Below are positions 3,418 through 56,949 of a stretch of 64,000 nt of DNA, in pieces. The DNA comes from Mobula hypostoma (taxonomy: Eukaryota): NCBI RefSeq assembly GCF_963921235.1, contig NC_086108.1:80726001-80790000 (forward strand). Direction: 5' to 3'. The notes under the pieces are model-generated. The model was not told the origin of the DNA, searched no databases, and was given only the letters and a program-made list of their open reading frames with translations. Each line of letters starts with the position of its first letter. The first letter of the stretch is position 1. The translations under genes were made by a program, and so were the position numbers.

Positions 3418-3606
3418 AACACACACAAAATGCTGGAGGAACTCAGCAGGCCAGGCAGCATCTATGGAAAAAAATACAGTTGACGTCTCGGCCCAAAATG
3501 TCGACTATACATTTTTCCATAGATGCTGCCTGGCCTGCTGAGTTCCTCCAGCATTTTGTGTGTGTTGCTTGGATTTCCAGCATCTGCAGATTTTCTCTTG
3601 CTTGTG
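3418..3606. mobile_element. Palindromic PLE-pLTR derivative (MITE-like hairpin) inside an older related repeat
   Basis: Perfect 55-bp inverted arms 3418-3472 / 3512-3566; 16-bp flanking duplication aaacagctagagaaac (3405-3420) / aaacggctagaggaac (3607-3622), 2 mismatches. Confidence 0.85.
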
Positions 3607-11270: not shown

Positions 11271-12048
11271 AAATATTTAAGGGAGCATTATTTTTTTCAA
11301 TGATGAAACAAATTCCCTAATAGAGTAAAACAGAGCTGATATTTATTGTAGGGCAATGATCTTTCATTGGCCTGAAAAGTTAACTCTGTTTCTCTCTCCA
11401 CATATACTGTCTAACCTTATGAGTATTACCTCCAAATCCAGTTTTTATTTCACTTCTGCAGTGATTGGCATATTTTTCTTTTCTTGTTGATAGTTTGGAA
11501 ATAGACCGAATCATAGATGGAAAATGTGTTTTCATGTAAGTGTGACTCACTCTAACAAGGACAAAAAGACATTTTTTAAAAAAGCTAATAGCAAACTGCC
11601 TGCCCTTTGCCATACTTTTTTGTTTCGTCTTCTTCCAGAAGTTATCTATTTTTCTACTCAATTATGTTTGTGTCCACTGTGAAAATATTCCACTCCGCTG
11701 TGAAAAAACTCTTCCAATTTATCATCCCATAAGTTACAAGCTGAGTCTAACCCTTACTAAGTCAGTGGAAACAATTCTTCATTATTATGTCAAAATGTTG
11801 TAGAATTTTAATAGCCTCTTAAAGTTCCTCTTAGTTTCAATTTCAGTAAAAATATTTGGTTCAATTAAGTATCAAAGCAAAGCCTATATGCAGAGAAGTC
11901 CCCCTTCACATTACTAACATGGTGCAGGAGAAATGGTCCTATGCCTAACCACAAACAAGAGAAAATCTGCAAATGCTGGAAATCCAAGAACACACACAAA
12001 ATGCAGGAGGAACTCAGCAGGCCATCTGACTCCTCATCATTTTTTCTC

Positions 12049-12086
12049 CAGTCCTGATGAAAGGTTTCAGCTTGAAACATCGACTG
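12049..12086 (+). ncRNA. Minimal hammerhead motif, catalytic boxes intact, stem III ACAU
   Basis: CAGUC-CUGAUGA-A-AGG(UUUCAG)CUU-GAA-ACAU-C/GACUG. Confidence 0.75.
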
Positions 12087-12606
12087 CAGTCTTTTCCATA
12101 GTTGCTGCCTGGCCTGTTGAGTTCCTCCGGCATTTTGTATGCGTTGCTCGGATTTCCAATATCTGCAGATTTTCTCATTGAGATTGGATTACTACACTGC
12201 GAAACCTCTTCGAGGGATGCATACCCTGAAGAAGTTTAAACCTTCCCTTCGACGGCAGTTCAGTGAGACTCTCTCTCCCTGCTCCCCCTCTGTGATCTCT
12301 GCTGCCCTCAGACTCTTCGACTATGTGCTCACCCAGGCCTGCTACCACAGCCATGTATCCTTCCTGGGAACATGTCTCCACTGCCAGCGTGTACCACATG
12401 GCTTGCAGATTAGTTTTCAAGCTTCTCAATCTGGACCCTCTGAGGACCCCAGGAACTCACATTCAACTAACTGTTTCTCCCGCTGTATCTCCCTCTGCGT
12501 TCTCACCAATCAACTTCCCAACTCTTTACTTCACCCCTCCCACCTCCCAGTTTCACCTATCACCTCGTGTTTCTCCCTTCCCCTCCCCTGACCTAACCTT
12601 TTTCTC

Positions 12607-12644
12607 CAGTCTTGCTGCAGGGTCTCAGCCCGAAACGTCGACTG
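12607..12644 (+). ncRNA. Degenerate hammerhead motif
   Basis: CAGUC-UUGCUGC-A-GGG(UCUCAG)CCC-GAA-ACGU-C/GACUG; stems intact, CUGANGA box mutated. Confidence 0.6.
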
Positions 12645-12864
12645 CACTCTTTTCCATAGATGTTGCCTGGCCCGCTGAGTTCCTCCAGCATTTTGTGTGT
12701 GTTGCTTGGTCCTACGCCTAACTTCATATGTGGTGTTTAATTATCGAAACAAGCTATGATTAAGTCAAAAATAATACCTGCACATTGTGCTAACGTTATT
12801 TTTTTACATTTTACACATCAAATGCTTCATGCAGGTTCACCCTATTAATGCCCAGCCACACTCC

Positions 12865-26358: not shown

Positions 26359-27037
26359 CTTCACTTGTGAGTCTGTTGTGGTCATCTATTGCATCCAGTG
26401 CTCCCGGTGCGGCCTCCTCTACATCGGTGAAACCCGACGAAGATAGGGGGACCGCTTCATCGAGCACTTCCGCTCCGTCCGCCAAAACAGACAGGATCTC
26501 CCAGTAGCCACCCACTTCAACTCAGATATAGCTTCCCACTCCCAGTCAGATATGTCCATACATGGCTTCCTCTACTGCCATGATGAGGCTAAACTCAGGT
26601 TGGAGGAGCAACACCTCATATACCGTCTAGGTGGTCTCCAGCCCCTTGGTATGAACATAGAATTCTCCAACTTCCAGTAATTCCCTCCCCCTCCCTTCCC
26701 CTATCCCTATTTCACTCTGCCCCCTCCCCCAGCTGCCTATCACTTCCCTCTTGGTTCCGCCTTCTACTACCCATTGTGTTTTCCCCTATTCTTTCTTCAC
26801 CTTTCCTGCCTATCACCTCCCTGTCTCCCCTCCCCCACCCCTTTATCTTTCCCCTTACTGGTTTTTCACCTGAAACCTACCAGCCTTCTCCTTCCCACTC
26901 TCCCCCCCCCCACCTTCTTTATAGGACCTCTGCCCCTTCCCTCTACAGTCCTGACGAAGGGTTCCAGCCCGAAACGTCGACTCATCGTTTCCACGGATGC
27001 TGCCCGACCTGCTGAGTTCCTCCAGCGTGTTGTAAGT
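26359..27037 (+). mobile_element. Young 5'-truncated Neptune-type PLE (GIY-YIG + pLTR)
   Basis: VIYCIQCSRCGLLYIGETRRR.GDRFIEH; very similar to 54745-55415; flanking duplication gagaaaaaca at 26349-26358 and 27038-27047. Confidence 0.92.
26946..26983 (+). ncRNA. Minimal type-I hammerhead motif, intact core
   Basis: AGUC-CUGACGA-A-GGG(UUCCAG)CCC-GAA-ACGU-C/GACU; predicted cleavage after C26978. Confidence 0.85.
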
Positions 27038-28984: not shown

Positions 28985-31075
28985 GAGACACAAGACCCTG
29001 TAGATGCTGGAGTCGGGAACAACTAATTGATCTTCTACAGCATGGTTCGAAACCAATTTTTAATGCCATGGACCCTTATCATTGATCAAAGGGTGCATGG
29101 ACCCCAGTTCAGGAGCCCCTGTTCTAGATGAAGTGAGTGAGTTGAGTAGCATCTTCAGGGGGAAAGGAATTGAAGACATTTTGGGTCAAAACACTGCATC
29201 AGGACTTCTTTCCAAACTCAAAAGGATTGAACCAATCATCTTAGGAATCAATAGGTAAGGCAGCAACTACGGAGAGGAATAAACAGTCGATGATTCGAGC
29301 CAAGATCCTTCATTGGGACAGGAAAGAAAATAGGCTCTCTGCCATCATAACAGGGGTAGGGTTCCGCTCATCCTTACAAACCATTCCACAAACCTCCGTA
29401 CCAGTACATTATTCTCCATTATTTCCGCCATCTCCAATGGAATCACTACGCACAACTTTCTCTCCCCTTTCTGCAGGAATTACTCTCTAGGCAACCCCTT
29501 TATCACTCGCCCCTCCCCCGTGATCTACCATCTGACATTTATCCCTGCAAGCGATACAAACGTTACACCTTCCCCTACATTTCCTCCATCACTTCCATTC
29601 AAGGATCCAAATAGTCCTTCCACCTGATGTGACACTTCACCTGCAAGTCAGTCTATTGTATCTGGTGCTCCAAGTGCAGCCTCTTTTATATCGGTGAGAC
29701 CCAACGTAGACTGGGAGACCACTTTGTTGAGTACCTTTGCTCCACCTGCCACAAAATACAGGATCTCCTGGTTGCCACCATTTCAGTTGACTTCCTATTC
29801 TGACAAGTTGGCATGCCTTTCTCTATTACCACAATGAAGCCATACTCCAACTGAAGGAAAACACCTCATATTCTGTATAGGACCTAGAGGCTACCAAGGG
29901 AAGAAGGAGGGGATGGGCAGGTGAGAATAACAGGAGTTTATGTTATCGGTTCAGGCTACATAGCATAACATAAACATTGACTTCTTTAACTTCTAGTAAC
30001 TTCTTTCCCTTCCCCTTCTCTCTTTTTCCATTCCCCATTCTGGGTACCCTCTCACCCCTTCACTTCTTCTCACTTGCCCATCCCCTTCTTCTTCCCTTTC
30101 TTTCATGTCCATTCTCCTCTCCTATCAGATTCCATCTTCTTCAATCTTTTCCTTTCCCACCTATCACCTCCCAGCTTTTCATTTCATCACCCCCTCCCCC
30201 TGCCTACTCCACCCACCTACCTTCCCCTTCACCTGGCTCCATCACTCACCTTCCAGCTTGTACTCCTTCCCCATCTTCTGATTCTGGCTTCTTTCCCCTT
30301 CCTTTCCAGTCTGTCACAGAGAGGTCAGGAGAAGAGATGACAAAGATGAGCTCCTTCCACTGGGTTTCTATGTGCTTGCTAAGGACTACAAGGTGCTCAG
30401 TGACATCCTGAATGCTTCTCCTCCATTTTGATTTGTCCTCTCTATAGATGCTGTCTAGCCTGCTGAGTTCCTCCAGCATCTTACGTGTGTTACGCTTTTT
30501 CCATTCCCCATTCTGGTTCCCTTCTCTTCTCCTCCCCTGCCTTTGTCTTCCCATTGGTGCGCCTCTTTCTTCCATGGTCCACTGTTTTTTCCTATTAGAT
30601 TCCTTCTTGTTCAGCAGATTAATTCTTCCACCTATCACCTCCCACCTTCTTACTCATCACCCTTACCCTGCCCACCCACCTTCCCCCTCACCTGGTCTCA
30701 CCTATCACATGCCAGCTTGTACTCCTTCCCCTCCCTCCATTTTCTAACTCTGACCTTGCCCCCCTTCATTTCCAGTCCTAATGAAAAGTCTCAGCCCAAA
30801 ACATTGACAATTTATTCCCTTCCATAGATTCTACCTGACCTGCTGAGTTACTCCAGCATTTTGTGTGTGTTGCTCAAGGTTTCAGGTCATTAATTTTTCA
30901 TCAAAATGCTGAAGATGAGTCAACTCTTCAATAGAAAAGAGTTAATATTTCAGGTCAATGACCTGAAATTCTGTTTCTGTTTCTCCCTCCAAGGATGCCA
31001 GCACGTCTGCTGAGTATTTTCAGCATCTTCAAGTTTTCTTTCAAATTTCTAACATCTGCAGCTTTTTGCCTTCAA
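28985..31075. mobile_element. Cluster of degraded PLE pieces (minus tails 28985-29330; plus GIY-YIG and pLTRs 29350-30880)
   Basis: GIY-YIG remnant tgcagcctcttttatatcggtgagacc; degenerate HHR motifs near 29170 (-), 29284 (-) and 30773 (+). Confidence 0.75.
29041..29121. mobile_element. Diverged ~80-bp hAT (Charlie-like) MITE inside a pLTR tail
   Basis: Reverse-complement homologue of 45651-45729; imperfect 8-bp TSD ttctacag / ttctagat. Confidence 0.7.
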
Positions 31076-38411: not shown

Positions 38412-39412
38412 TATAACAAGCGCAGTGGATAGAGTGGAACAGATGGACGTTATTTACTTGGATTTCCGGAAGGCGTTCAATAAGGTGCCGCATAAAAGAC
38501 TTACCCATAAGATAAGGAGGCATAGAATTGGGAGTGATGTGTTAGCATGGATAGAGGATTGGTTAACTGATAGAAGGCCGAGAGTTGGGATACATGGGAG
38601 TTACTCTGGTTGGCAATCAGTGGTGAGCAATGTGCCGCAGGGGTCGGTGCTGGGCACTCAATTGGTCATAAAATCCATTAACAATCTGGAAGAGGGGACT
38701 AAGTGTAGTGTGTCTAAGTTTGCTGATGACACTAAATTAAGTAGAAAAGCAAATTGTGCAGAAGATACAGAAAGTCTGCAAAGAGATATAGATAGGTTAA
38801 GTGAGTGGGCAAGGGTCTGGCAGATGGAGTACACTGTTGGTAAATGCGAGTTCATCCATCTTGTAAGGAAAAATGGAAGAGCAGATTATTATTTAAATGG
38901 TAAAAAATTGCAGCATGCTGCTGTGCAGAGGGACTTGGGAGTGCTTGTGTATGAATCACAAAAGGTTGGTTTGCAGGTGCAGCAGGCTGTCAAGAAGGCA
39001 AATGGAATGTTGGCCTCCATTGCTCGAGGGACTGAGTTTAAGAGCAGGGAGGTTATGCTGCAACTGTACAGGGTACTGATGAGGCCGCACCTGGAGTACT
39101 GCGGGCAGTTTTGGTCTCCTTACTTGAGGAAGAATATACTGGCTTTGGAGGCGGTGCAGAGGAGGTTCACCAGGTTGATTCCAGAGATGAGGGGATTAGA
39201 CTATCAGGAGAGGTTGAGTCTCCTGGGACTGTACTCGCTGGAATTCAGAAGAATGAGAGGAGATCTTATAGAAACATTAAGTTTTGAAAGGGATAGATAA
39301 GATAGAGGCAGGAAAGTTGTTTCTACAGGTAGGTGAGACTAGAACTAGGGGAGATAGCCTCAAAATTCCGGGGAGTAGACTTAGGACAGAGTTGAGGAAG
39401 AACTGCTTTTCC

Positions 39413-40856
39413 GAAACACACACAAAAAATGTTGGAGGAACTCAGCAGGCCAGGCAGCATCTATGGAAAAAAAGTACAGTTGATGTTTTGGGGAGGGGGG
39501 AACCCTTTGGCAGGACTGGAGAAAATAACTGAGGAGTAGATTTAAAAGGTGGAGGGAGGGGAGAGAGAACTACCAGGTGATAGGTGAAACCTGGCGGGGC
39601 AGGGATGAAGTAAAGAGCTAGGAAGTTGATAGGTGAAAGAGACAGAAGGCCATGGAAGAAAGAAAAAGGGGGAAGGAGCACCAGAGGGAGGCAATGGGCA
39701 GACAAGGAGATGAGGTGAGAGAGGGAAAAGAGGATGGGAAATGGAGAAGGGGAGGGTGGAGTGGTGGGGGGCATTACCAGAAGTTTGACAAAGTGATGTT
39801 CATGTTATCAGGTTGGAGGCTACCGAAACGGAATACAAGGTGTTGTTCCTCCAGCCTAGGTATGCCCTCATCACGACAGTAGAGGAGGCCATGGATGGAC
39901 ATATCAGAATGGAAATGGGAGGTGAAATTAAAATGGGTGGTCACAAGGAGATCCCGCTTGTTCTGGCAGATGGAGCACAGATACTCAGCAAAGCAGTCTC
40001 CCAGTCAACATAGGGTTTCACCAGGTTACAAGAGGCCCCACCAGTAACACCGAACACAGTATATGACCCCAACAGACTCACAGGTGAAGTGTCAACTCAC
40101 CAGGAAGGACTGTTTGGGGCCCTGAATGGTAGTGAGGGAGGAGGTGTAGGGGCAGGTGAAGCACTTGTTCCGCTTGCAAGGGTAAATTCCAGGAGGAGAT
40201 CAGCGGGGAAGGATGAATGGACAAGGGAGTCACGTAGGGAGCGATCCCTGCCGAAAGCAGAAAGTGGGGGGAGAAGGGAAAGATGTGTTTGGTGGTGGGA
40301 TCCAGATGGAGGTAGTAAAAATTTCGGAGAATTATGTGCTGGACGCAGAGGCTGGTGGGGTGGTAGGTGAGAACAAGAGGAACCCTAACCCAGGTAGCGC
40401 AGCAGGAGTATGGGGTAAGAGCAGACGTGCGTTAAGTGTAAGAGATATGGTTGAGGACAGCGTTGATAGTGGAGGAAGGGAAGCTCCTTTCTTTGAAAAA
40501 TCAGGACAGCTCCTTCGTTCTGGAACGAAAAGCCTTTCTTCTCCTCCCTACCCCACCCCCCCCGCCTTTCTTCTTTCTTCCATGGCCTTCTGTTTTTTTC
40601 ACCAATCAACTTCCTAGCTCTTTGCTTCATCCCCCCCGCCTCCAAGTTTCACCTATCGCCTGGTGTTTCTCTCTCCCCCACCCTCACCTTTCAAATCTTC
40701 TCCTCAGCTTTTCTTCTCCAGTCCTGCTGAAGGGTTTTGGCCTGAAACGTCCACTGTACTCTTCTCCATAAATGCTGCCTAGTCTGCTGAGTTCCTCCAG
40801 CATTTTATGTGTGTTGCTTGGATTTCCAGCATCTGCAGATTTTCTCTTGTTTTCGG
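39413..40856 (-). mobile_element. PLE insertion with inverted termini: minus-strand post-RT/GIY-YIG/pLTR (39413-~40535) + plus-strand pLTR (~40536-40856)
   Basis: Both ends are outward-facing pLTR tails; interrupts the CR1 at ttttcc (39407-39412 / 40857-40862); HHR-derived motifs at 39477-39518 (-) and 40719-40756 (+). Confidence 0.88.
40719..40756 (+). ncRNA. Hammerhead motif with variant core CUGCUGA (A6C)
   Basis: CAGUC-CUGCUGA-A-GGG(UUUUGG)CCU-GAA-ACGU-C/CACUG; first stem I pair mismatched. Confidence 0.6.
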
Positions 40857-41169
40857 TTTTCCCAGAGAGTGGTGAATCTGTGCAATTCTCTGCCTAGTGA
40901 AGCAGTGGAGGCTACCTTAGTAAATATATTTAAGAAAAGGTTGGATAGATTTTTGCATTGTAGGGGAATTAAGGGTAATAGGGAAGGTGGAATGGAGTCC
41001 ATGGCTAGATCCGCCATGATCCTATTGAATAGCAGATCAGGCTCGACAGGCCAGGTGGCCTACTCCTGCTCTTATTTATCATGTTATTTATCATTCCTTA
41101 TTTTAAAAACATTTAGAACTATGTCTGAAGGTGAAGAACATAGTCTAGGTCTTAAATGGATATTTGTCA

Positions 41170-42440
41170 TCTGTAGTCAGAATGAGGAAGCAATTGTGGA
41201 GAATTCACGGAGGAGGATGTTGGAATTCTAGAGCAAGTTACCATTGAAAAGGAGGAGTTATATCTTAGCAGGCTTAAAGGTGCATAAATCCCCAGGTTGA
41301 AGGCCAGATGAGATACATCCCAAGTAGAAGTGGGAGGGAAGGAAGGAGATTGCTAGAGCCCTGACTGAAATCTTCTCTAGCCACAAATGAGGTGACAGAT
41401 GACTGGAAGACAGCAAATTTTTAACCTTATTCAATATGGGAAGTAATAGTAAAGCAGATAATGATAAGCCAGGGAGTATAATAGCAGTTGTAGGGAACTT
41501 AGCAAAGTAAAATGTGTCATTGTAAAGGGGGATCCCGTCTGAATAACTTGATTGAATTTTTTAAGCAGGTGACTGAGCATACCAAAGAGGGTGGTGCAAT
41601 TGACATGGTCTATGTACACTTCAGCCAGGCTGGTTCAGGGTAACTTGCCAAATTGGATCTGAAATTGGCTTGATAATAGAAGCCAATGGTTGAAAGTTAT
41701 TTCCTGATTGGTTGAAAGCATACGGGCAGTTTTATACTGCTCAGCATCTAGCTATACTAATATTCTGGGTGTGAGTGTGGGGGGGATGACTAACAAGCTT
41801 GCAGATGATATACAGATTGGTGGTTATATTGATAGTGAGAAGGACTGTCTTCAGCTATGGAGGAATATTACTCAAACTATTACCGGACTTCCTCAGTGGT
41901 CTAAGAAAATTTGGCATGTCCCAATGATCCTTACCCATTTTTACAGATGCGCCAAAAGAAACCATTCTATCCAGATGCACCACACCTGGTATGGCAACTG
42001 CTCCACCAAAGACCACAAGAAGTTTCAGAGAGTTGTAAACATGGCCCAGATCATCGCACAAATAGCCTTCCCTCACATGATTCCGCCTACACTTCCTGCT
42101 GACTCATGAAAACAGCCAACATAATCAAGGACCTTCTCCTACCACCCAACTTAATCCACCCTCTCCCATTGCGTGGAATGGACAGAAGCTGGAAAGCATG
42201 TACCAAGCTTCGATCCTGCTGCCATCAAATTCCTGAACAGGCCTCTCTTACACAAAGGGTGAATTTGTCACTTTGTTGCAGGCCTTGCACTTTTATTTCT
42301 TTACTTGCACTGCATTTTCTCTGTGGCTGCAACACAGCATTCTGTTTTCTTTTCACTAACTAAATGTACTTATAACCTGTCTGGGTAGCCCACAAACAAG
42401 CTTTTTTCACTGTATCTTAGTACACTTGACAAAAACAAAT
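41170..42440 (+). mobile_element. Degraded CR1 RT (41170-41870) followed by a Rex/Babar-like 3' fragment (41870-42440)
   Basis: KLADDIQIGG, then TWYGNCS..DHKKFQRVV and a 3' UTR like those at 48600-48850 and 60350-60600. Confidence 0.7.
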
Positions 42441-42442
42441 AA

Positions 42443-44075
42443 ACCATAGGACACTACAGCACAGAAAACAGGCCATTCGGCCCTTCTAGTCTGTGCCAAA
42501 ACTTTATTCCACTAGTCCCATTGACCTGCATCCAGTCCATAACCCTCCAGACCTCTCCCATCCATGTACCTATCCAATTTATTCTTAAAACTTAAAGAGT
42601 GAGCCCGCATTTACCACGTCAGATGGCAGCTCGTTCCACACTCCCACCACTCTCTGAAGTGAAGAAGTTCCCCCTAGACCTTTCCCCTTTCATCCAAAAA
42701 CCATGTTCTCTTGTATTTATCTCTCCTAATCTAAGTGGAAAGAGCCTATTCACATTTACTCTATCTATACCCCTCATAATTTTGTAAACCTCTATCAAAT
42801 CTCCCCTCATTCTTCTACGCTCCAAGGAATAAAGTCCTAACCTGTTCAATCTTTCCCTATAACTCAACTCCTGAAGACCCGGCAACATCCTAGTAAATCT
42901 TCTCTGCACTCTTTCAATCTTATTGGTGTCTTTCCTAAAGTTAGGTGACCAGAACTACACACAGTACTCCAAATTTGGCCTCAATGTCTTATACAACTTC
43001 ACCATAACATCCCAACTCCTATACTCAGTACTTTGATTTATGAATGCCAGGATGACAAAAGCCTTCTTTACAACTCTGTCTACCTGTGACGCCACTTTCA
43101 GGGAATTATGTATCTGAACTCCCAGATCTCTTTGTTCCTCCGCACTCCTCAGTGCCCTACCATTTACTGTGTATGTCCTACCTTGATTTGTCCTTCCAAA
43201 ATGCAACACCTCACACTTGTCTGCATTAAATTCCATCTGCCATTTTCTGGCCCATTTTTCCAGTTGGTCCAGATACCTCTGCAAGCATTGAAAGCCTTCC
43301 TCGCTGTCCACAACGCCTCCAATCTTAGTGTCATCAGCAAACTTGCTGATCCAATTTACCACATTATTATCTAGATCATTGATATAGACAACAAACAACA
43401 ATGGCCCCAGCACAGATCCTTGAAGCACACCACTAGTCACAGGCCTCCAGTCTGATGAGCAATCATCCACTACCACTCTCTGCCTTCTCCCACACAGCCA
43501 ATTTCAAATCCAGTTTACATCCTCTCCATGGATACCTAGTGTCTGAACCTTCTGAACTAACCTCCCATGTGGGACCTTGTCAAAGGCCTTACTAAAGTCC
43601 ATGTAGACAACATCTACAGCCTTTCCTTCATCTACTTTCTTGGTAACCTCCTCGAAAAACTCTACAAAATTCGTTAAACACAATCAACCACACACAAAGC
43701 CATGCTGACTATCCTTAATCAGCCCTTGGCTGTCCAAATACTTGTATATCCGATCTCTCAGAACACCTTCCAATAATTTACCTACTACTGATGTCAGGCT
43801 CACCAGCCTGTAATTACCTGGTTTATTTTTGGAGCCTTTTTTAAACAACGGAACAACATGAACTACCCTCCAATCCTCCGGCACCATACCTGCAGCTAAG
43901 GACATTTTAAGTATTTCTGCCAGGGCCCCTGCAATTTCTACACTAGTTTCTCTCAAGGTCCAAGGAAATATCATGTCAGGCCCGGGGGATTTATCTACCT
44001 GTATTCGCTGTAAGGCAGCAAGCACCTCCTCCTCTTTAATCTCTATATGTTCCATGACACTGCTGCTTATTTCCC
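42443..44075 (-). mobile_element. Relatively young 5'-truncated CR1 LINE (RT to 3' tail)
   Basis: KSPGPD, QHGF, GVLQGSVLGPLLF, KFADDTKIGG, QRRFTRMLPG with few disruptions. Confidence 0.95.
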
Positions 44076-44490
44076 ATTACAAACCAATACAAAGGTGGGC
44101 AGAGAAAAGGCAGATGGAATTCAATCCTGCAAAATGTGGGGCAGTGTACTTTGATCAAACTAATAAAACCACAATGAATAAGGATATTACCAGGACTGAA
44201 GGCTTGAAGTGCCTAAACCTGGAAGTCAAATTCAAAGTGAAAGGGGCAAGATTTAAAAGGGACCTGAGGGGCAACATACAAAGCATAGCATTTATAATGG
44301 AACAAACTGCAAGTGAAAGCTGTAGAGACAGGTATGATTACAATGCTTAAAGGACATTCGAACGGGTACATGGATAGAAAATGTTTAGAGGGATGGGGGC
44401 CAAAAGCAGGTAAATTGAACTAGCTAGTATAAACATCTTGGCTGATTTATGCCAAAGGACCTGTTTCTGTGCTCTATAATTCTATGAATT
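44076..44490 (+). mobile_element. Degraded CR1 3' fragment
   Basis: WAEKRQMEFNPAKC, FKVKGARFKRDLRGN and CR1-type tail. Confidence 0.7.
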
Positions 44491-44656
44491 TATGACCTGG
44501 GGATTCAGGGTTGTAAGTCACTGAGGTAAAGAACATTTTGGGGAACGTGGTTAGGATAGATAGGATAAACAGAAAATTTTCCCACTAACAGAGTCTATAA
44601 GAAAAGGGCATGTTCATAAAAGGCGTAAGAGATTTAGAAAGAATTTAAGAATTTGT

Positions 44657-45499
44657 CCACACACTCTGTCCACAACAAGGAGGATGAGCTTAGAAGGATT
44701 AATGGCACATAATGGCAACTCCTTTGCTTCTATTTTTGGAAACAGCTCTATTTCCATCTTTAATATCTCTATTTTTTCCCTTTCAGGGTTCTTTTGAAGA
44801 TCCTGACCTGGAGTTACATGCTGACTACAGTTCTTTACAGGAATAGGACCCGCTCTTGGGATTTCACAACTGGCCATTATTTGGCACGCCAAGGGCTCAG
44901 CCTAAGAGCTCAGCTTGCCTTCGGAGGGCCAAGATCACGTGGCTCTGGAGATGGGCGGATCAAAGGTCGGTGTCTGGGCAGGAGATTGGTGTGTCGTGGG
45001 AGATGAAAGATCTAAGGCTGTGTGCCCAGAGTCCCAAGATCTTTGGGCACAGAGCTCGGAAAAAGCGACGCAACGGACTTTTAACATCGTAACCAGCCAG
45101 TTGTTTGTTATGTCTCCCCTCTCGCTGTGAAATGGAGACATACCTTTCTCCTTTATTAGGGGGAGAGAGAGAGAGAGAGAGAGAGAGAGCCTGTGGTATG
45201 GTGAATATCGGGTGAACAAGTAGTCTTTGGAGTACTGCGAGTCTGTGTCTTTGCTATTGCTTGAGTGCTTGATGGTGGGTGCCGATGCTTTTCTTTGCTG
45301 GTGGGGGGAGGGGGATCGTTGCTTGCTGCCGCTTATGCATGGGAGGGGAGGTAGGGGGAACCTTGGGGTTCTAACATTTAAATGCCGTTCATTCTTTGGG
45401 GGCACTCCTCTGTTTTCGTGGATGGTTGCGAAGAAAACGCATTTCAGGATGCATATTGTATACATTTCTCTGACATTAAATGTATCTTTGAAACCTTTG
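44657..45499 (+). mobile_element. Non-autonomous retroelement-like insertion with internal (GA)n, inside an old CR1 3' end
   Basis: TSD atttgt at 44651-44656 and 45500-45505; 3' end attaaa...ctttgaaacctttg (short repeat tail); CpG-retaining body; no RT motifs. Confidence 0.6.
45163..45189. repeat. (GA)n microsatellite
   Basis: Uninterrupted GA run. Confidence 0.95.
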
Positions 45500-45650
45500 A
45501 TTTGTTTACCCCGAGGCTGGCTTGAAACCTGCAGTGCTCTAGAAATGGTGGAAGCAGGTACATAATATTTAAAAGGTATAATATGAGCACCTGAAACACC
45601 ATGGACAGAAGTCCATGGGTTAAGAGATGAGAAATAGGATTAGTATAGAT

Positions 45651-45729
45651 CAGGGATTCCCATCCTGGGGTGTATGGACCCCTTGCTTAATAGTAATGGT
45701 CTATGGCTTAAAAAGGTTGGGAATCCCTG
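45651..45729. mobile_element. 79-bp hAT (Charlie-like) MITE
   Basis: Perfect 12-bp TIRs CAGGGATTCCCA / TGGGAATCCCTG; perfect 8-bp TSD gtatagat at 45643-45650 and 45730-45737. Confidence 0.93.
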
Positions 45730-46939
45730 GTATAGATGATGGCTAATGGCCAGCAAGGACATAATGGGTTGATGGGCCTGTTCCATGCTGTATGACTCAA
45801 AAAACCATACCTGACCTTTCAGGTAACCATAGTGGACAGTCCACATGTCTGACCAGAATGGCAAAACAAGCACTCTACTGTGATCTCCATCATAGCAAGT
45901 ATCCTAGAGTTGCACAGCACAGAAATAACACCGTCAGTCCACTAAGCCAATTAATATTGTTCCCCTTCACCTGCAATGGTCCTCATCCTCCGATGCCTTA
46001 GCGATTTCTATGCCAAGGAAAGGTTTCTTTGATTCCTCAAAACCTCGTTGAAAAAAAAATGGGTAATTTATGGGAACTACTGGCACAACCTCAAATTGCC
46101 AAGTAAAGGCTGGAATGGAACTGACTGCTTTGAGTTCCTCCAATGCTCCAATGGGTGCACATAGATTTTATGTAAACAGAGTTCGATCTGTCCCTTCTTT
46201 GCCACTATCTGTCTATCTGACATAGCTTTCATTAATCACCCCAGATCCCAAAAGATCTACAATGAAAGGAAATGCCTATGACCACTAAAAATGCCCAAGT
46301 GAATGCCTAAGATTGCTAAAACAGATCATTTGTTAGTCCGGTGTATATAAACTGGTTGCTGCTTCTTCTATATTAGGTTAAACTTCAAAAGTATTTCATC
46401 GGCCATAAATGCTTCAGGATGATTGAAAGTGGAATGTAAAATGCAACTCTCCCTTATTTTTCCCCAAGACTGCATCTGACATTTACGCACTGATCAAGTC
46501 TCAGTCTTCTGCTATTCTTGTCACCTGAATTCTTCGGTGGTTTTCATTTCAATTTTCTGTCCTACAGACCCTCAAGATGTAGACGGTCACCCAACGTGGA
46601 CGGACACTCTGGCACTTACTAGGCACTTTAGAAGAAGGTTGGCTGCAGGACCCGGGTTGCTTGGAAATTCCCAGTGCCACAGTTTTCTTAAAAAAAACAG
46701 AATGGGTACTCTGCATTTGTCTCTTCAGTTAAAGATTCGATTCAGAAAAAATATGCTCTTATCGAGTAAATTGCAGAGCCCCGGATATCGAAGCATTTCA
46801 CAGCTAATGAAATACTTCGTAAATCATAATGCCGTAACCTCTAATGAAATAGAGTGTATGACGAAGATAAAACATCGCAAGATGCTTGACGTTTGTGTGT
46901 GTGTATTAAAGCACTTTTATTGTTAATTCTTAATTTATG

Positions 46940-47600
46940 TTGGTGGCTCCGGGAAGTCTGTCTTAAATTGTGTTAAACTATTCAAATGGCCGCTGGTTTA
47001 TTCTTCCTGAAGCGGAACTTTCATAACAAAAATCCCAGTAATTATTTGCAAATGTTGGTGCGACGCCGGCTTTCGGTATGTGTATGTGTGAAAGAGGCCT
47101 ACAATCCTTTTTCCAATCCCCGGTGTTTCCTGCTTCCCGCAGGCGCTCTCACCTGAACTCGGGCGCGTTAATCATTTTCCTCATGTCGGCGGCGAAGGAG
47201 GCGAGGTTTCCCCATAAGCAAGTGGGCTGAACCTGTCCGGACATGTTTTCGCGGCGGCGGCTGGAACCGCGGTCTCGGGGCAGGCTGCACTTGGCTGGCG
47301 GGCAGAGGGGAAATGAGATAACAGGGAAAGAAGGTTAAAGGAGAAAGAAAACAAGAAAAGGAAATAGAAGAAGAACAGATGCAGAGAGGGAGAAAATCAG
47401 AGAAAAGAAACTAAGTTGGAATGTGACTGGCGAGAAAGCAACAAGTGAAACTTTTCTGTAAAGAATACAACTCTCAATTTAAATCAGTAGCAATCATTAT
47501 GTCAAAGGGAGACTGCTGATTTAGGCGCAAACTTTTGAATAAAACCCTGTTTGCACAAATGCAAGCTTTATTTATGACGAGCGAGGCGGTTTTTCCCAGA
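46940..47600 (-). promoter_or_regulatory. CpG-rich promoter / first-exon region of btbd19
   Basis: Local excess of CpG and GC (gcggcggcgg, cgacgccggc) around exon 1 in a CpG-poor window; ETS-like cores (ccgggaagt, gcggaact); strongly purine-rich plus-strand tract 47305-47420 upstream of the ATG. Confidence 0.6.
47153..47244 (-). CDS. btbd19: BTB/POZ domain-containing protein 19, coding exon 1 (MSGQVQPTCLWGNLASFAADMRKMINAPEF+AG)
   Basis: ATG at 47244; 92 nt = 30 codons + 2 nt; donor AG|GTGAGA at 47152. Resembles the BTBD19 N-terminus as recalled (G...F.A.LR.L.N.P.YSDV). Phase 2 joins exon 2 to give S-D-V-K-F. CpG-rich context. Confidence 0.9.
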
Positions 47601-47924
47601 ACCACTATTTGGGAGTCCACCTTGACATTATACAATCGGATTCGTATTAGTTTATTATCACATATACTAGAGTGCAATGGAATTCTTTGCTGCTGCTGTA
47701 AAACTCACAGAGTTAACAATATACACGGCAAAAATAAACATAACAATAAATAGAGTGGCAAACAAAACAGCTGAATGGTGTAAAGTGTAGTAACTAATAC
47801 AAACATAATTAATGTAAAAATAAATGATAAAGTGACAATAACGGAAGAGGTAGAATTAAGGGTTGGGGAACGTAGCAGCATCAGTGGAAGATGAAGTGAA
47901 AGAGGTGATTCATTCATGTCAAAG

Positions 47925-48850
47925 TTTAATGGCTCTCAGTCCACTACTCTACTTGCCATACACTCATGTCGGTGTGGCCAGATTATGCTCTATGTCCACC
48001 GACAAGTTTGCAGGTGACACCGCCGAAGTGGGCTTTATCTCATATGATGATGAGTTGGAATACAGGAAGGAGATAGACAGCTTAGCAACGTGTTGTCATG
48101 ACAACAACCTTTCCCTCGGTGTCAGAAAAACAAACAAGCTTGTCATTGATTTCAGAATGGGAGGTGGCGTTCGTGCTCCTGTCTGCGTCAACTGTGCTGA
48201 GGACAAGAGGGTGGAGAGTTTCGAGTTCCTAGGAGTGAATTAGCCCGTCTTGTTCAACCACATTGATGCCACGGGCAAGAAAATGCACCAGAACTTGTAC
48301 CTCCTCAAGAGGTGAATGAAAAGTTGGCATGTCGGATTTGACCTTCACCGAATTTTATCTACGCACCATAGGAAGCATCCTCTCTGGATGATTCATGCTT
48401 TGACATAGCAACTGCTCGTGACTGCAAAAGCTGTTCAAAATTGTCAGCACAGCTCAGTACCTCATGGAAAACAGCCTCCCCTCCCTCCTTCCACCTCTTG
48501 CTACCTTGGTAAAGCAGCCAGCATAATGAAAGATTCCACCCACCCCAAACATGCTGTCTTCCCATTGGGCAGGATACAACACCTTGGATGCACGTATCAC
48601 CAGATTCAAGCACAGCTTCTATCCCACCATTATAGACTACTGAATGGTTCCTTAATACAATAAGATGACCTCTTGAACATTTATGACCTTGCACCTATTG
48701 TCTACCTGCACCGTACTTTCCGCATTCTGTCATTGTTTTACCTGATATGACATCAATGCACTGTGTAATAAATTCATCTATGCGAACAGTATGCAAAATA
48801 AATTTTTCACTGTACTTCAGTACATGTTACAATAACAAACCAACTCTAAT
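47925..48850 (+). mobile_element. Rex/Babar-like LINE 3' part, degraded
   Basis: LSPLLY.PYTH, KFAGDT, DDELEYRKEI, ESFEFLGV; 3' UTR ending acaataacaaaccaact. Confidence 0.85.
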
Positions 48851-51800
48851 TTCATAAAAGGCTGCCCTTGAGAGTGGACATGCAGCTTCTGTGTCTTCGT
48901 CTAGAAAAGAGTGGCCTGGGTGCTACTCGGGGAGTGATTTTATTGTGCTCATCCTTTCCATTGGCAAAATTAAGTCTGATTTCACCACTGGGGGATCAAC
49001 TGGCTGTGAATTAATTTATTTTGATATGTATCACATTGTACAGCACCATCACACCTTCTCCGGAAGGTTTGCTCACACAGCAAATGTCTGTGCCCTGTTG
49101 CCCATGGAGAGGGAACATGTGATGATGATACAAATAGAGCCTGCTGCAAATGATGGGTATGTCAATGCAGATAATATTATCGTTTAGCATTGCGTATTTT
49201 AGAAAATTAAATATTACCTTTATTGTGTTACCAGTTTTCAGTGCTATAACAGGAAAATTGTTCTTTAGAAAGTAAAAAAATAGATTTAAAGATCCTGTTT
49301 TGAATTATAATTTTCTGACTGATGTTCAAAACGCGCAAACTCGCAAACTCTATCACCCATAATAGTCCATTAAAATTAGATGCCTATTAATGCTCAGTAT
49401 CTATTGCCTTTGTGAATGGTCTAATTAAAATAACACAACCAAATTAACATGATTTCAGGTCTCTCTGTTCAACAAAATGCAATGGCAGAAGCACAGTACA
49501 ATTTCTCAGTACGATACACTTGCCTACAGCACATTCAGATTCCAGTTGGCCATAATTACTGAGTGCTAATGGCTAGTTTCTGAAAATTAAACATTATGTG
49601 GAAAACAAAATAATGTGAATGCTGTAAATCTGAAGTAAAACACAGAAGATCCTGGAAAGATTCAGCAAGCCAGGCAGTGTCTATGGGTAAAGAATGAGAA
49701 TAATGACTTTTCAGCAGATTGCAGATAAAGCAAGTTGTACGATGCAGAAAAGGGCTGGGGGAGGAAAGAACAAAATAAAACTTATCAGTGGGTTCAAGAC
49801 AGGAGATGTTAAATGACAAAAGGAACAATGGTAAAAAGCTAAAGAAGATTATAGGACAAATAAGGAATCCAAAGATGGGAGTGGATGAAATGCACTTGGG
49901 TATAGCAGTATTAATATCTTGACGATAATGTGTCATGTGTATCATGCCGTGACCAGGCACTGTCATAAGTGAATAATCTACCAACACTCCTCACTAGGAC
50001 AATGTCTGAACAATCACTTAGGTGTGTTTTGTATTCTACACAGTCCTGCGTGAAATGTTCTGGCTCTAATGAACCAATGAGGCAGAGGCTTGTGAATTCT
50101 GCAGAAGAAGGCATTAAATATATTTACATTTTAATCTTCTCATAGCTTGTAGTTTCATCATTAATGAAGATCTGGGAAAAATTGACTACAAATATATGGA
50201 AATAATGTCAGCTTAGGAATTAAGTGTTTCGAGACTTCCCTAAAGCAGCCAAGGACAGACAACTAGTAGTGATTTGAAGGACTGAAAGAAAAAGATGGGC
50301 CTTCAGTCAAATATGTTAGAAACATTGTGATAAAATTTATATTCAATTGGACTTGGACTTTGACAAAAGTTAATATTGTTCAGAAAGATTGCCACAGAGT
50401 TGTAGCTATCACCTTGGAGACCTGTGCTGATGGCAAGTTGCCCAGAGCAGCACCAATAGATCAAGACTCCTTGCCTTCATGTGGTGTACTGGTGCAATAA
50501 GCTTACAATCAATGGCCAATCGTTTGTCAGGTGGTGAAGGCACTTGGAGAATCATTATGACTTTTTTTTACAGTTTGCAGCATGAAGAGACCTGATAATA
50601 TCCCCATGGAAGTGTAAAACATTGTTAAAAGCCAGAGGTTTCAGCAGCACTGCCTCCAGTGTGGTCATTGCAGTAAGGACGCTTTCAAAGAAATCGTAAT
50701 TCTGTTTTAACTTGGATTGCAGAAAGTAATCAGAGATCTTACATTTTCTGTGTAGGGTAAGAACTTTATTTTTGTGGTATTTTTTCCCATATAGTTTTAG
50801 TTTTTGCATCTTAGTTGAATATTGTATTGCATGTAAGTCATACTTATTAAAGTTTTCATTCATTACAAGTTTCTCTTAATGAAGGAAGGATGAAATGATA
50901 GATATCTAACCTTACAATAATCTGTTGAAAAAATATTATTTAGGAAACAATTCAAGAAAGGTGGAATGCTTCAATGGAATGGTTTTATTGTGGTTTTAAA
51001 TAGTTGTGAAACCATGAAATACATATTCATATGTTCTGTAAACTTTCACATCTGCATTACAATGACAATGCTGTGTATTTAACTTCCAAAACAATGAGCT
51101 GTACAATGCTCTATGTTACTCTTCATATTTCAACAAATGACAAATTCGAAATCTCAGTAGCATTGTCAGCAGATCAAGATGAGTCTTGGTATTTTGACAC
51201 ACAGAGGATTGGAAAATATTGGATCAAGTCAATTGTAGTGGTGACGACTTCCACTGCTACCAGTTTAGTTCAAATCTAACCTGCAGCAGAACCTGGAAGA
51301 GTAGCAAATCTGGCTAGTAGAGGGAATAAGATTGCAAGGTTTTGGCTCAGTTAGAAGCCACTGAAGACAGATGTTTATACATTCTTGTCCCTGTCTGGCA
51401 CTTGATCACATAATTTAGGTTAAACACAAGAGATTCTGCAGAAGCTGGAAATCCAGGGCAACACACGAAGTGCTGGAGAAATACAAGTCAGACAATGTCT
51501 ATGGAATAAACAGTTGACACATCATCATTAGTAATTTAGGTTAATGTCTTAGTAGAGGGATAAAGAGTGTGTTTTATATGGAACATTCGGGTAGATGCTA
51601 TAGATTGCTTGGCAACGTTTAAAGAAATCAAATCTCTAGTCTAATATTGCTCTTTCAACAAAAATAGTCAAACGTATTTTTTGATTATGCATTATTTTGT
51701 GTACAAATTGACAGCCATATTTGCCCATTTGACCATCAGGTCATAAACAAAGTGGTTCAGTCAGGTTTCTGACTGAACTGGTTTACATCTTGGGACAGAT

Positions 51801-52614
51801 AAATCCTGGGGCGTGTCTACAACAGGTTGCACTTGTGCTACAACTAGCTGTACAACATTGTCACCTCTTTTGGCTCACACACCATATTCCCTGCCATCAC
51901 CAGAAATTGGCATACAAAGTTCTTTCTACATCCTTCCATTCAGAATGTGGCCATGAGCTCATCTTCAGATGCCAACATCCCTGACCAGTCACTTAGACAC
52001 ATCAATTCCACCTCATTCATACATGATTCTACATCCAGTATCTGGGTCTCATTGATGCCATAATTGCAATTTTAAAGTAGTTGCAGATATAAGAGGACCT
52101 GCAGGTGTTCGTATGCAAATCTTTTAAGGAATTGGTTATCAAGGTGGGTATGAGTTCCATTGCTTTATAAAAAAAAAGGTTAAGCTACAAAAGAATAAGG
52201 AAATTATGCTAAACCTTTATAATTCATTGGTTAAGCCTCAGTTGGAGAATTAAGTTCACTTCTGCATAGTAAAATTTAGGAAGATCTTCAAGGCTCGAGG
52301 GTGCAGAAGCTATTTACCAAAATAGGAATGGGATAATTGATCAGTTATGTGGAAAACTGGAATTGTTCTCTTTAGACTAGAGGAGGTTAAGAAGAGTTTT
52401 TTTTAAGGTGGTCCAAATTGTGAAAGGCTTGATAGAATGGACAGAGTAGAAATTTGAAGAAGGGTTAGTAGCCAGACATAACTGAGCAGAAACACTTCCT
52501 TTACATAGTAGTTTGTAGTGTTCTGGAATGGAATGGCTGCGGGGAATGTAAACACAAAATAATCTGCAGATGCTGGGGGAGCTTAGCAGGTCGGGCAGCA
52601 TCCATGGAAAAGAA

Positions 52615-52652
52615 CGGTCGACGTTTCAGGCTGGAACCCTTCCTCAGGACTG
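52615..52652 (-). ncRNA. Minimal hammerhead motif, intact core
   Basis: Minus strand: CAGUC-CUGAGGA-A-GGG(UUCCAG)CCU-GAA-ACGU-C/GACCG. Confidence 0.8.
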
Positions 52653-53005
52653 TAGAGGGAAGGGTCAGGGGCCCTATAAAGAAGGTGGGGGGAGGGTGGG
52701 AAGGACAAGGCTGGTAGGTTCCAGGTGAAAAACCAGTAAGGGGAAAGATAAAGGGGTGGGGGAGAGGAGGCAGGGAGAAGATAGGCAGGAAAGGTGAAGA
52801 AAGAATAGGGGAAAACACAATGGATAGTAGAAGGAGGCGGAACCATGAGGGAGGTGATAGGCAGCTGGGGGAGGGGGCAGAGTGACATAGGGATAGGGGA
52901 AGGGAGGGGGAGGGAATTACCAGAAGTTGGAGAATTCTATGTTCATACCAAGGGGCTGGAGACTACCTAGACGGTATATGAGGTATTTCTCCTCCAACCT
53001 GAGTT

Positions 53006-55063
53006 GCTGAACTCTTCTTCTGTCGCCTACGTCTCCAAGCCTACCTCTTTGGCAAGGATTCCCCTCCCCCAACTGAGGACCCCTTCTCCTGTCTTCAACC
53101 CTCCTCCTCCTGGACACCCCGCCCGGGCCTTCTACCTGCACTCGATCTTTTTATCTCCAACTGTCGCCGAGACATCAACCGTCTCAACTTCACCACTCCT
53201 CTCTCCTGTTCCAACCTCACTCCCTCTGAACGCACTGCCCTCCACTCTCTCCGCACTAATCCCAACCTCACCATCAAACCCGCTTACAAAGCTGGTGCTG
53301 CAGTAGTCTGGCGGACAGACCTCCACCTCACTGAGGCCAAACGGCAGCTCTCTGACACCACCTCTTACTTACCCCTGGAACAGGACCCCACCAAAAAACA
53401 TCAAACCATTGTCTCCTGCACCATCACCACCCTTATCAACTCCAGAGACCTTCCATCCTCAGCCGCTAAACTCCCACACCCCGTACCGCTCGGTTTTACC
53501 TCCTCCCCAAGACCCACAAGCCTGACTGTCCCGGTAGACCCATAGTTGCTGCCTGCTCCTGTCCCACCGAACTTGTATCTGCCTACCTGGACTCCATTTT
53601 GTCACCCATAGTTCAGTCCCTCCCCACCTACATCCGGGATACATCCCATGCCCTCCACCTCTTCAATAACTTCCAGTTCCCCGGTCCCAACAGCTTCATC
53701 TTCACTATGGATGTCCAATCCCTATACACCTCCAGTCCCCATCAAGAAGGCCTCAAAGCCCTCCGCTACTTTCTGAATAATAGACCTCACCAGTTCCCCA
53801 CCACCACTACCTTCCTCCAGTTGGCGGAACTGGTTCTCACACTCAATAGCTTCTCTTTTGGCTCTAGCCACTTTCTTCAGACCAAGGGTGTAGCTATGGG
53901 AACTCACATGGGCCCTAGCTATGCCTGCCTCTTTGTTGGTTATGTGGAACAGTCTGTGCTCCAAACCTATTCTGGTACTGCTCCCCAACTTTTCCTTCGG
54001 TACATTGATGACTACATCGGTGCTGCTTCCTGCACCCATGCTGAGCTTGTCAATTTCATCGACCTTACTTCTAACTTCCACCCAGCCCACCAATTCACTT
54101 GGTCTATCTCGGACACTTCTCTCCCCTTTCTCAATCTCTGGGTCTCCATCTCTGGAGACGGACTGTCCACTGACATCTTCTACAAGCCCACTGACTCTCA
54201 TAACTACAAACGTTTGTACCTCAGCTATACCTCTTCCCACCCCGCCACATGCAAAAATGCCCTATTCCCAGTTCCTCCGTCTCCGCCGCATCTGCTCCCA
54301 GGATGACGCTTTCCGTTCCAGGATATCTCAAATGTCCTCTTTCTTTAAGGATTGTGGTTTCCCTTCTGATGTCATCAATGATGCCCTCACCCGCATCTCC
54401 TCAATTTCCCGCACTTCGGCTCTCACCCCATCCTCCCGCCACCACAACAGGGACAGAGTTCCCCTTGTCCTCACCTACCAACCCACCAGCCTCCGGATCC
54501 AGCATATTATCCTCCGCAACTTCCGCCACCTTCAACAGGACCCCACCACTAAGCACATCTTTCTCTCTCCACCCCTCTCTGCTTTCCGCAGGGATCGGTC
54601 CCTCCGCGACTCCCTGGTCCACACGTCCCTCCCCACGGATCTCCCACCTGGCACTTATCCCTGTAAGCGCAAGTGCTACACCTGTCCCTACACCTCCTCT
54701 CTTGCCACCATTCAGGGCCCCAAACAGTCCTTCCAAGTGAGGCAACACTTCACTTGTGAGTCTGTTGGGGTCATCTATTGCATCCGGTGCTCCTGGTGCG
54801 GCCTCCTCTACATCGGTGAAACCCGACGCAGATTGGGGGACTGCTTCGTCAAGCACCTCCGCTCCGTCCACCAAAACAGACAGGATCTCCCAGTAGCCAC
54901 CCACTTCAACTCTGCTTCCCACTCCCATTCAGATATGTCCATACATGGCCTCCTCTACTGCCATGATGTGGCTAAACTCAGGTTGGAGGAGCAACACCTC
55001 ATATACCGTCTAGGTAGTCTCCAGCCCCTTGGTATGAACATAGAATTCTCCAATATCCGGTAA
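53006..55063 (+). pseudogene. Frameshifted PLE reverse transcriptase - GIY-YIG endonuclease ORF
   Basis: RT core in ORF 53599-54306; thumb, linker and GIY-YIG in ORF 53921-55063; frame switch near 54200-54260; N-terminus missing. Confidence 0.9.
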
Positions 55064-55327
55064 TTCCCTCCCCCTCCCTTCCCCTATCCCTATGTCACTC
55101 TGCCCCCTCCCCCAGCTGCCTATCACCTCCCTCATGGTTCCACCTCCTTCTACTACCCATTGTGTTTTCCCCTATTCTTTCTTCACCTTTCCTGCCTATC
55201 TTCTCCCTGCCTCCTCTCCCCCACCCCTTTATCTTTCCCCTTACTGTTTCTTCACCTGGAACCTAGCAGCCTTCTCCTTCCCACCCTCCCCCCACCTTCT
55301 TTATAGGGCCTCTGCCCCTTCCCTCTA

Positions 55328-55365
55328 CAGTCCTGACGAAGGGTTCCGGCCTGAAACATCGACCA
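55328..55365 (+). ncRNA. Minimal hammerhead motif, stem III ACAU
   Basis: CAGUC-CUGACGA-A-GGG(UUCCGG)CCU-GAA-ACAU-C/GACCA. Confidence 0.75.
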
Positions 55366-56949
55366 ATCATTTCCACGGATGCTGCCCGACCTGCCGAGTT
55401 CCTCCAGCGTGTTGGGAGTGCTGCGGGGAATGTAGGAGTAAATTCAATTGTAACTTTCAAAAATGAAATTAATAAATGAAGACAAAATATATGGCAAGGC
55501 TGTAAGGAAAGAGCAGGAAGTGAGATTGATTGGATTTCTTTAGCAAGGAGCTGGGACAAGTTCAACTTGTGGAAAAAATTACCTCATTCTGCACTAAATC
55601 ACATGCTCTCTCTCTATCTCTCTCTCTCCCTATCTTTTCTTGCTTAGACTGGTTGTTGCAATGAGCAAATATCAAGCAGAACAACCTGACGCAAAAGGCT
55701 CTGCATATTTCATCTCCCTCCTCCTTATATTGTTCTTTTGTTAGAAGTTACAAGACAAATGGCAGAACTCTCTCATCTGGAAGACCCATTAAGTTTCTTG
55801 TACCTCTTCATGCACTTCTTGCAACTGTAGTTGCACTGTTCACAAGGTGCCCATTGCAAACCTTTTGCCAATGACTAAAAATAAGTCACATTCTTCTTTG
55901 TCTCCCTCAGGAAAAGTTTCAGAAAAAAATAGTTAACTGTAGGTTGCTAATTGTTCTTTGTGTCTTTTTATCAGTGTAGTTTTATGGTCTCATTATCTAT
56001 TGTCACATAAAATAGAAAGATCTTTAGTATGCCACTGCACCATTGCTGCACAACCTACCCTTATCTCCACAATTACTATAGGTAGTTTTGAACTGCCCCA
56101 TAATCTTTTCTTCCAATCCACTGTAATTTGGACATTGTGATGCCCTGTTCAGATTAAAGCTATCACAGGCTATTACACATTGGGTGATAACCAGAGAGTT
56201 TTGCATTCCTCCCGATGGAGAAGAACATCATGCATTGTATAGGAAAGATGATCAGACTATTTCCCAGGACCACTTTTACCTCCTAACTCCCTATCTGTTT
56301 TGCAACATTCCAGATCTCTAATGTCAGGATTTGCAATGAGGTCAGTACTCAGGTCAATTTGAAGTCTAAAGTTCCACTCGTTCAAAATTCCAATAGTAAA
56401 CCAGACCACAGGACGTTCTGAGCAAAGGCGTTTTCTTCATTGCATTTTTGTTCAACATATTATATTGCTAAATGAATGGACAAGTTGAAACATTACTAAA
56501 GCATTTTCTTTACCTGTTGAAACATGTCAGCTTCCTTTGATTGCTGCAGGATTGTGATAGTCTTGGCAATAGTGATTAATTTAACCGAGTATGGGAAGTA
56601 CAGTAGAACTGATCATCTCAGGACTAGCCAGCTCATAACTGTGCTTCATGTACATCAGTTTCCTGGAGCCCCAAAATTCACCCAGATACACCTGTTTACC
56701 CATGAGTTTTTCTGCAGTGAATGAAATCTTTTTCTGCGTATTCAAATGTTGGGTTTGAAAAAGGTTCAATAATTTTGACAGCAATCCTCTCCTTGCCAGT
56801 GTTTTCATTCCATTTGGTGAGAAAATAATGAAACTTTATTTAAAATTCTCCCATTCTCCCTTGTGCTAGAACCCTGGCATTTGCATCTTAGCATGTTCTG
56901 CTCCTCAACCCATCACGATGCCAAACTCTTATTCCATCACCTCTGCACC

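Follow-up and report, generated by a model that had tools for sequence, protein, structure and literature searches.

The 64,000-nucleotide stretch of Mobula hypostoma DNA analysed here (contig NC_086108.1, positions 80,726,001 to 80,790,000 of the forward strand; hereafter the window, numbered from its first letter) carries at 52536-55434 a real, single insertion of a Penelope-like element (PLE) in a mirror-image layout. An inverted copy of the element's 3' end stands head to head with a 5'-truncated open reading frame (ORF), both 3' ends face outward, and one target-site duplication (TSD) encloses the whole (Table 1). We find it fairly probable that this insertion arose by double target priming, in which both nicked target strands were primed in one event and copying began within the RNA and not at its 3' end.

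The structural claims of the initial annotation for this locus (a perfect 15-bp TSD, a ~450-bp inverted copy of the 3' end and a 5'-truncated ORF) held up. The two TSD copies agree at 15 of 15 positions, and the arms at 52572-53005 and 54975-55408 align over 434 nt with 24 mismatches, an identity of 94.5%. The ORF begins at 53006, which corresponds to residue 203-260 of full-length homologs of 889-955 aa, and a tblastn match on the minus strand (53006-52923) covers the coding part of the left arm. At their outer ends the arms differ. On its outer side the left arm carries 21 nt of tail (52551-52571) that the right arm lacks, and the first 11 nt of these recur as the tail of the loci at 3418, 11950 and 39413 (loci A, B and C); the final 11 nt of the right arm (55409-55419) have no counterpart in the left. 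By analogy with the tails of those three loci, ~29 nt spanning the short terminus would have been lost from the left arm. The inner junction unites two unrelated element positions ~1970 nt apart and looks near-blunt, with at most ~1 nt of microhomology as judged from a conserved Asp codon; the residue upstream of the junction is Asp in 14 of the 21 homologs with a motif match. The host sequence of the TSD could, on inspection by eye and weak alignments, be an old CR1-like fragment of a long interspersed nuclear element (LINE).

To gauge chance matches between flanks, we scored 3000 random position pairs with the same search freedom; a score of at least 10 occurred in 6 of them and of at least 15 in one. 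The main locus scores 15, far outside this null, loci B and A score 13 and 10, and locus C scores 6, a value matched by 188 of the 3000 pairs. Weak as it is by score alone, the 6-bp match initially annotated at locus C is a real TSD, because paralogs of the host LINE, aligned to a reconstruction of the empty site, show no gap of 5-6 nt there only if the reconstruction keeps a single copy of the 6 bp (6/6 alignments shown). The same comparison gave no clear join at the main locus, whose host LINE is too decayed, and at locus A the join was one base off and gives host identity only; no paralog spanning the empty site was found for locus B, 26359-27037 or 51424-51531. The 16-bp TSDs annotated at loci A and B are present, but they contain two and one mismatches, respectively, and their edges overlap the element by ~3 nt. 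Across the window the TSDs measure 6, 10, 13, 15, 16 and 16 bp. While three of the four two-armed loci have 15-16 bp, this range, with 10 and 13 bp at the single-armed copies, speaks against the fixed 15-16 bp stagger of the GIY-YIG cut that had been proposed. Variable TSD length has been ascribed to variable nick spacing (PMC8557442). A TSD scan of the older PLE relics at 29248-30884 and 2.3-3.07 kb found nothing, and 10-nt TSD-like matches at the relics at 16-17 kb and 49.6 kb were discounted, since the search windows were wide and the matches do not coincide with a homology boundary on both sides.

Table 1. Features of the main locus and of the other TSD-bounded PLE insertions in the window.
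Feature	Coordinates	Strand	Evidence or remarks
Left 15-bp TSD copy	52536..52550	+	Exact match to 55420-55434; alignment of the organism H contig ends at 52550
PLE tail remnant (long terminus) on inverted arm	52551..52571	-	Adjoins the ~29 nt gap spanning the short terminus
Inverted 5'-truncated copy: end of GIY-YIG domain, 3' untranslated region (UTR), hammerhead-like motif	52572..53005	-	94.5% to 54975-55408
Internal head-to-head junction	53005..53006	.	No filler; probably at most ~1 nt microhomology
5'-truncated PLE ORF: reverse transcriptase (RT), Cys-rich linker, GIY-YIG with CCHH-type motif	53006..55063	+	Pfam, homologs, motifs in translation
Forward arm, 3' UTR/pseudo-long terminal repeat (pLTR), tail-less, ends at short terminus	55064..55419	+	Hammerhead-like CTGA..GAAA at 55333-55356
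Right 15-bp TSD copy	55420..55434	+	Exact match to left copy
Locus A, two-armed mini insertion	3421..3606 (3418-3606 in the initial annotation)	.	Left arm with short end, right arm with tail; 16-bp TSD, 2 mismatches
Locus B, inverted stub with tail, then partial tandem	11950-12706	.	16-bp TSD, 1 mismatch
Locus C, minus-strand arm of ~1120 nt with short end and forward arm of ~320 nt with tail	39413-40856	.	6-bp TSD
Single-armed copy, same family as main locus	26359..27037	+	Short end; 10-bp TSD
Single-armed PLE stub with tail	51424..51531	-	13-bp TSD

That both arms of the main locus arrived in one event, as initially proposed, is well supported. A single TSD surrounds both, and by eye no separate duplication was seen around either arm alone. 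For a comparison with relatives, contigs of four runs were aligned to 38800-54960, a stretch that leaves out the right arm, so that the right junction lies outside the comparison; runs with small word shares were left out, except X9 and X20. A contig of organism B (~1.4% from the window), aligning at 51437-52574, crosses from the flank into the left arm. A 1908-nt contig of organism H aligns from 51435 to exactly 52550 while its other 790 letters match nowhere on the stretch, and a contig of organism C aligns at 52334-52546, ending 4 nt short of the left TSD end with 199 letters over; the leftover letters of both match neither the ORF nor the left arm. On these alignments the insertion site looks empty in organisms H and C. 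An empty-looking left junction in H and an arm in B would date the insertion to after the split from H and before that from B. With the copy at 26 kb as third sequence, 13 changes are private to the left arm and 9 to the right, and the non-CpG divergence of the arms (14/407, 3.4%) compares with a flank divergence to organism H of 98/2699 (3.6%). Moreover, both arms carry a minority base at 52778/55202, where the other base takes 98.6% of the aligned depth, a crude copy-number measure, in X1, 96.8% in X5 and 100% in X20. A single source lineage is the reading that this shared variant favours, although gene conversion could yield it too.

We compared the termini of the two-armed loci. The PLE ends fall into two classes, a short end 14-21 nt past a core motif and a long end ~56-57 nt past it, with a tail of ~37 nt (loci A and B). 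All eight outer ends of the four two-armed loci lie at one of these two fixed termini, while their four inner junctions are all different. In each of the four, the short end is found on one arm and the tail on the other, a one-sidedness that the initial annotation had missed. The tailed arm is the shorter one at the main locus and at loci B and C, and at locus A the arms are nearly equal. Since the shorter arm of those three loci has tail sequence not found in the longer one, it is not a simple copy of its partner. We also collected 92 related loci from metagenomes and bins and examined the 13 with an inverted repeat. Two invertebrate-type loci, L088 (TSD of 12-15 bp) and L051 (11-14 bp), have TSD scores above all 300 null scores, and in the other 11 of the 13, several of which are cut by contig ends or do not end at PLE termini, no TSD score >9 was found. 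L088 and L051 carry one-sided extensions of 42 and 50 nt, respectively, on the longer arm in L051 and on one of two about equal arms in L088; with no second copy of either among the loci examined, their derivation from the element is not established. Fold-back palindromes lie at both inversion junctions (L051 6850-6874, L088 1096-1378), together with several templated switches in L088. Counting these two, the tail or extension is one-sided in six of six loci.

A TSD of this kind represents staggered nicks with both 3' ends pointing into the insertion, so that each can prime antisense cDNA and the 3' ends of the element come to face outward. The preserved ends fit copying from both cut strands, without amounting to proof. 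A precedent for the chemistry comes from PAc, the Poseidon element of Anolis carolinensis, whose purified protein nicks and extends both strands and uses two adjacent internal start sites that delimit the tail (PMC11167929). Those sites lie inside the ORF of this Poseidon-clade element, whereas the tail of locus B ends ~41 nt upstream of the ATG. In the double-priming account that we favour, a GIY-YIG nuclease, the presumed enzyme, would nick both target strands 15 nt apart, a geometry given by the TSD, and leave two 3' overhangs. Each 3'-OH would then prime RT internally near the pLTR of a tandem transcript, as the termini and the anole data suggest. One cDNA of ~2.4 kb would start from the short site and the other, of ~0.45 kb, from the long site ~35 nt further on, and the two truncated cDNAs would be joined nearly blunt by end joining, with gaps filled. 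Both would derive from the same source lineage, possibly from the same RNA, and the copy would later have decayed.

Priming of both strands and joining of the two cDNAs had also been put forward in the initial annotation; this part is plausible, given the activity of PAc and a short arm not copied from the long one, and unproven. Its additional claim, that priming started from RNA 3' ends, is probably wrong. At locus B, the sequence past the terminus and tail reaches the ATG at 12217, which matches the first residue of a homolog; the template thus goes on beyond either terminus and priming is internal, in concordance with the internal starts of PAc. Our literature search, in which older reviews, figures and supplements were not covered so that an absence is weak, found no paper that attributes PLE inversions to double priming; nor did it find a description of PLE structure in sharks or rays.

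Several points weigh against this reading. Its mechanistic steps have no direct observation. The available text of PMC11167929 saw no start-site difference between the strands, so an extra coupling step is required. An independent choice of start site would leave at most half of the insertions one-sided (P<=0.016 for 6/6 and <=0.06 for 4/4), and one-sidedness thus implies a coupling that has to be supplied, be it by one RNA primed twice or by trimming of a self-primed intermediate by the endonuclease (EN), two forms that our data do not separate. As for a single event, the total arm divergence of 24/434 (5.5%) exceeds the 3.6% of the flanks (binomial P=0.03) unless CpG sites are excluded. Thirteen of the 24 differences fall in the outer 103 nt, which are 12.6% diverged, CpG-rich and next to the deletion, and this excess could mean that the template was partly different. 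The arms of locus C are 13% apart, the right junction of the main locus is outside the relatives' data, and the minority base was counted by a crude measure.

The one-sided tail suggests a coupled use of the two start sites. Ordered double priming on one RNA, in which the short-site strand is primed first and the other at the long site ~35 nt downstream, displacing the first cDNA, is a possible form of such coupling that we put forward tentatively and did not find in the literature on PLE inversions. It would explain the one-sided tails (6/6), the shared minority variant and the tailed arm being the shorter in three of the four loci with clearly unequal arms (the main locus, B and C, but not L051; the arms of A and of L088 have about equal lengths). 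Two tail-bearing ends (2960-3075 and 52551-52590) have deletions of ~42 and ~29 nt, each with its outer breakpoint at or near the short terminus and lying between short repeated words. A jump by the second RT or a later microhomology deletion could have produced them, and ordered priming perhaps accounts for their ending where they do. As a separate observation, the long terminus at 40852 (and a loose end at 51421) is met by ~1500-2300 contigs per run, with a consensus GTG-ATT followed by AT-rich sequence at an agreement of only 0.4. The consensus echoes the ATT cleavage preference of PAc and may be element sequence.

One-sided tails have another direct explanation, in which an RNA (antisense, as proposed) or a cDNA folds back and primes itself, giving inverted-repeat DNA with tails at both ends, of which EN trims one upon integration. 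Self-priming was put forward in PMC3846280 from palindromes at inversion junctions, EN trimming is also suggested in PMC8557442, and the model gains from the six of six one-sided tails and from the palindromes at the L051 and L088 junctions. It nonetheless appears doubtful to us. The main junction joins unrelated, distant positions of the element, its 5-bp hairpin is of a size seen at 9-10% of random positions, and target priming on both strands has since been demonstrated in vitro (PMC11167929). Junction hairpins (5, 3, 4, 4 and 3 bp) were also tried as a signal in their own right and rejected on the same background of hairpins of at least 5 bp.

It is unlikely that the locus is a copy of an already inverted donor, made from a read-through transcript, or the product of a single cDNA whose template switched to its own 5' part or to another RNA. 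Either would account for the minority variant common to both arms, an active form of Penelope is flanked by inverted repeats (PMC2377424), and locus B is a partial tandem. However, fixed outer ends combined with four different junctions argue against a pre-inverted donor, the left ends lie at fixed element termini and not at random truncation points, and three short arms hold a tail missing from the long arm. Two separate insertions into the same spot at different times, helped by a liking of the nuclease for element termini, are very unlikely. Locus A did enter an older PLE terminus, and the divergence of the outer 103 nt of the main arms and of the arms of locus C would agree with different ages. 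Against this, there is one TSD and not two, organism H appears to lack both arms, as its extra 790 letters match neither the ORF nor the left arm, the private changes are balanced, and the one-TSD layout occurs at four window loci and two related ones. Lastly, inverted repeats can trouble assemblies and no one contig spans the insertion, yet an assembly artefact or chance matches are scarcely credible with arms that differ at 24 sites, contigs of two organisms that cross the left junction and a TSD score far beyond the null.

The mirror-image layout itself is not new. The typical Penelope structure, found also in flies and fish, has been published as an ORF next to an inverted pLTR, with a TSD and with the tail confined to one of the inverted arms (PMC3846280); this is repeated for all clades in PMC8557442 and drawn in its Fig. 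2, and it is described in Drosophila virilis as well (PMC2377424). The main locus resembles Pen2a_Av of Adineta vaga (PMC3846280) and the scheme of PMC8557442 in its RT with C-terminal GIY-YIG, its inverted 5'-truncated copy at the 5' end, its outward 3' termini, its 30-40 nt tail on one arm only and its variable TSD. It differs from Pen2a_Av in that the inverted arm abuts a truncated ORF and not a direct pLTR and in that the junction has no significant palindrome; the TSDs in the window measure 6-16 bp, compared with 8-10 bp in the rotifer examples. The available text of PMC11167929 does not discuss inverted insertions or TSD length, with 'inverted' used once (of a blocking dT) and 'duplication' and 'stagger' not at all.

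Twin priming in L1 (PMC11702581, PMC12016303) is similar in that priming occurs at both target ends, the two truncated cDNAs meet at an internal join and the TSDs of inverted insertions measure 12-18 bp; in rearrangements, L1 bridges with an outward-facing poly(A) tail at each end also occur (PMC11702581, PMC12016303, bioRxiv 10.1101/2024.08.27.596794). In L1, however, the 3' end appears once and the two cDNAs overlap by a median of 12 bp if at all, while the main locus carries its 3' end in two copies across 434 nt and has no poly(A). The insertion may thus work like twin priming, but it is not an L1 twin-priming product. The contrast with L1 drawn in the initial annotation holds for the usual product, although on rare occasions L1, too, links two cDNAs that were primed separately and lie in opposite orientation (PMC11702581; bioRxiv 10.1101/2024.08.27.596794). 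The two-ended form is rare in L1 and common here.

The coding content agrees with this placement among PLEs. At E<=1e-20 the protein has 458 homologs; the closest, at 71% identity, is from bamboo shark, followed by unnamed and coral or mollusc proteins, and homologs P0001 and P0013 match the ORF at 46-71%. Pfam recovers the RT as RVT_1 (E=2.9e-6) at 27.6 bits, slightly below the curated cut-off of 29.6, the DKG motif is degenerate, and the frame changes twice, near 53475 and 54260. A GIY-YIG-type domain with two cysteines between GIY and YIG (CCHH) was read by eye and aligned to homolog C-termini; a Pfam search of the translation gave no match to it in the main copy, and PF01541 is present in several homologs. 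The locus and its relatives in the window combine a PLE-type RT, a C-terminal GIY-YIG of CCHH type, pLTR, tandem and inverted copies, a 30-40 nt tail at one end and a TSD of variable length, the features of EN+ PLEs. The Cys-rich linker between RT and EN fits the homolog consensus, and a Zn-finger-like Cys motif there is a trait of the Neptune/Nematis group (PMC8557442). On this linker motif the element is a putative Neptune type within the Neptune/Nematis group. The host genome itself would be cartilaginous-fish-like. A hammerhead-like CTGA..GAAA occurs in both main arms, a pattern counted 109 times in the window where 109.6 were expected; Rfam gave no hammerhead match, and the folds were no better than shuffles. 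The terminal motif was searched for in viral and in metagenome contigs, with 0 matches in either set. Among the related loci, 12 contigs (L081-L092) filed under four bacterial metagenome-assembled genome titles, nine of them under one, carry animal-type PLE RTs and are most likely host DNA binned into those genomes.

The initial annotation had extended the same plan to loci A, B and C. All three are indeed two-armed, but at locus C the orientation is reversed, its long ORF-bearing arm being on the left and on the minus strand, so that it mirrors the main locus. Two-armed insertions make up four of the six TSD-bounded PLE insertions examined, a proportion that is not blind, as four of the six came from that annotation. 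The host of locus A (window 3378-3700) is the terminus of an older PLE on the minus strand, which would fit a preference for inserting at element ends. In the partial tandem of locus B, the end of a pLTR and its tail lead into the ORF start at 12217, and after an internal deletion a pLTR with short end follows. The portion at 12024-12706, which might be a non-autonomous derivative, is short and internally deleted: a pLTR end and tail are followed by the first ~110 codons and the 3' UTR. An older two-armed PLE relic at 29248-30884, with arms 26% diverged, contains an internal duplicated 3' region, and a tandem array of ~5 units of 27-30 nt lies at 7718-7886.

The origin of PLE head-to-head insertions has been described as undefined (PMC8557442). 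With a few clean cases and one dated insertion, the window is too small a sample to settle the mechanism, and its architecture is already published; the remaining gain is a modest mechanistic lead, together with a testable rule that links arm length to the side of the tail. Where a genome contains very many well-preserved copies, double target priming can be tested against self-priming from sequence only, through tail side, arm length, shared variants and the reuse of junctions.

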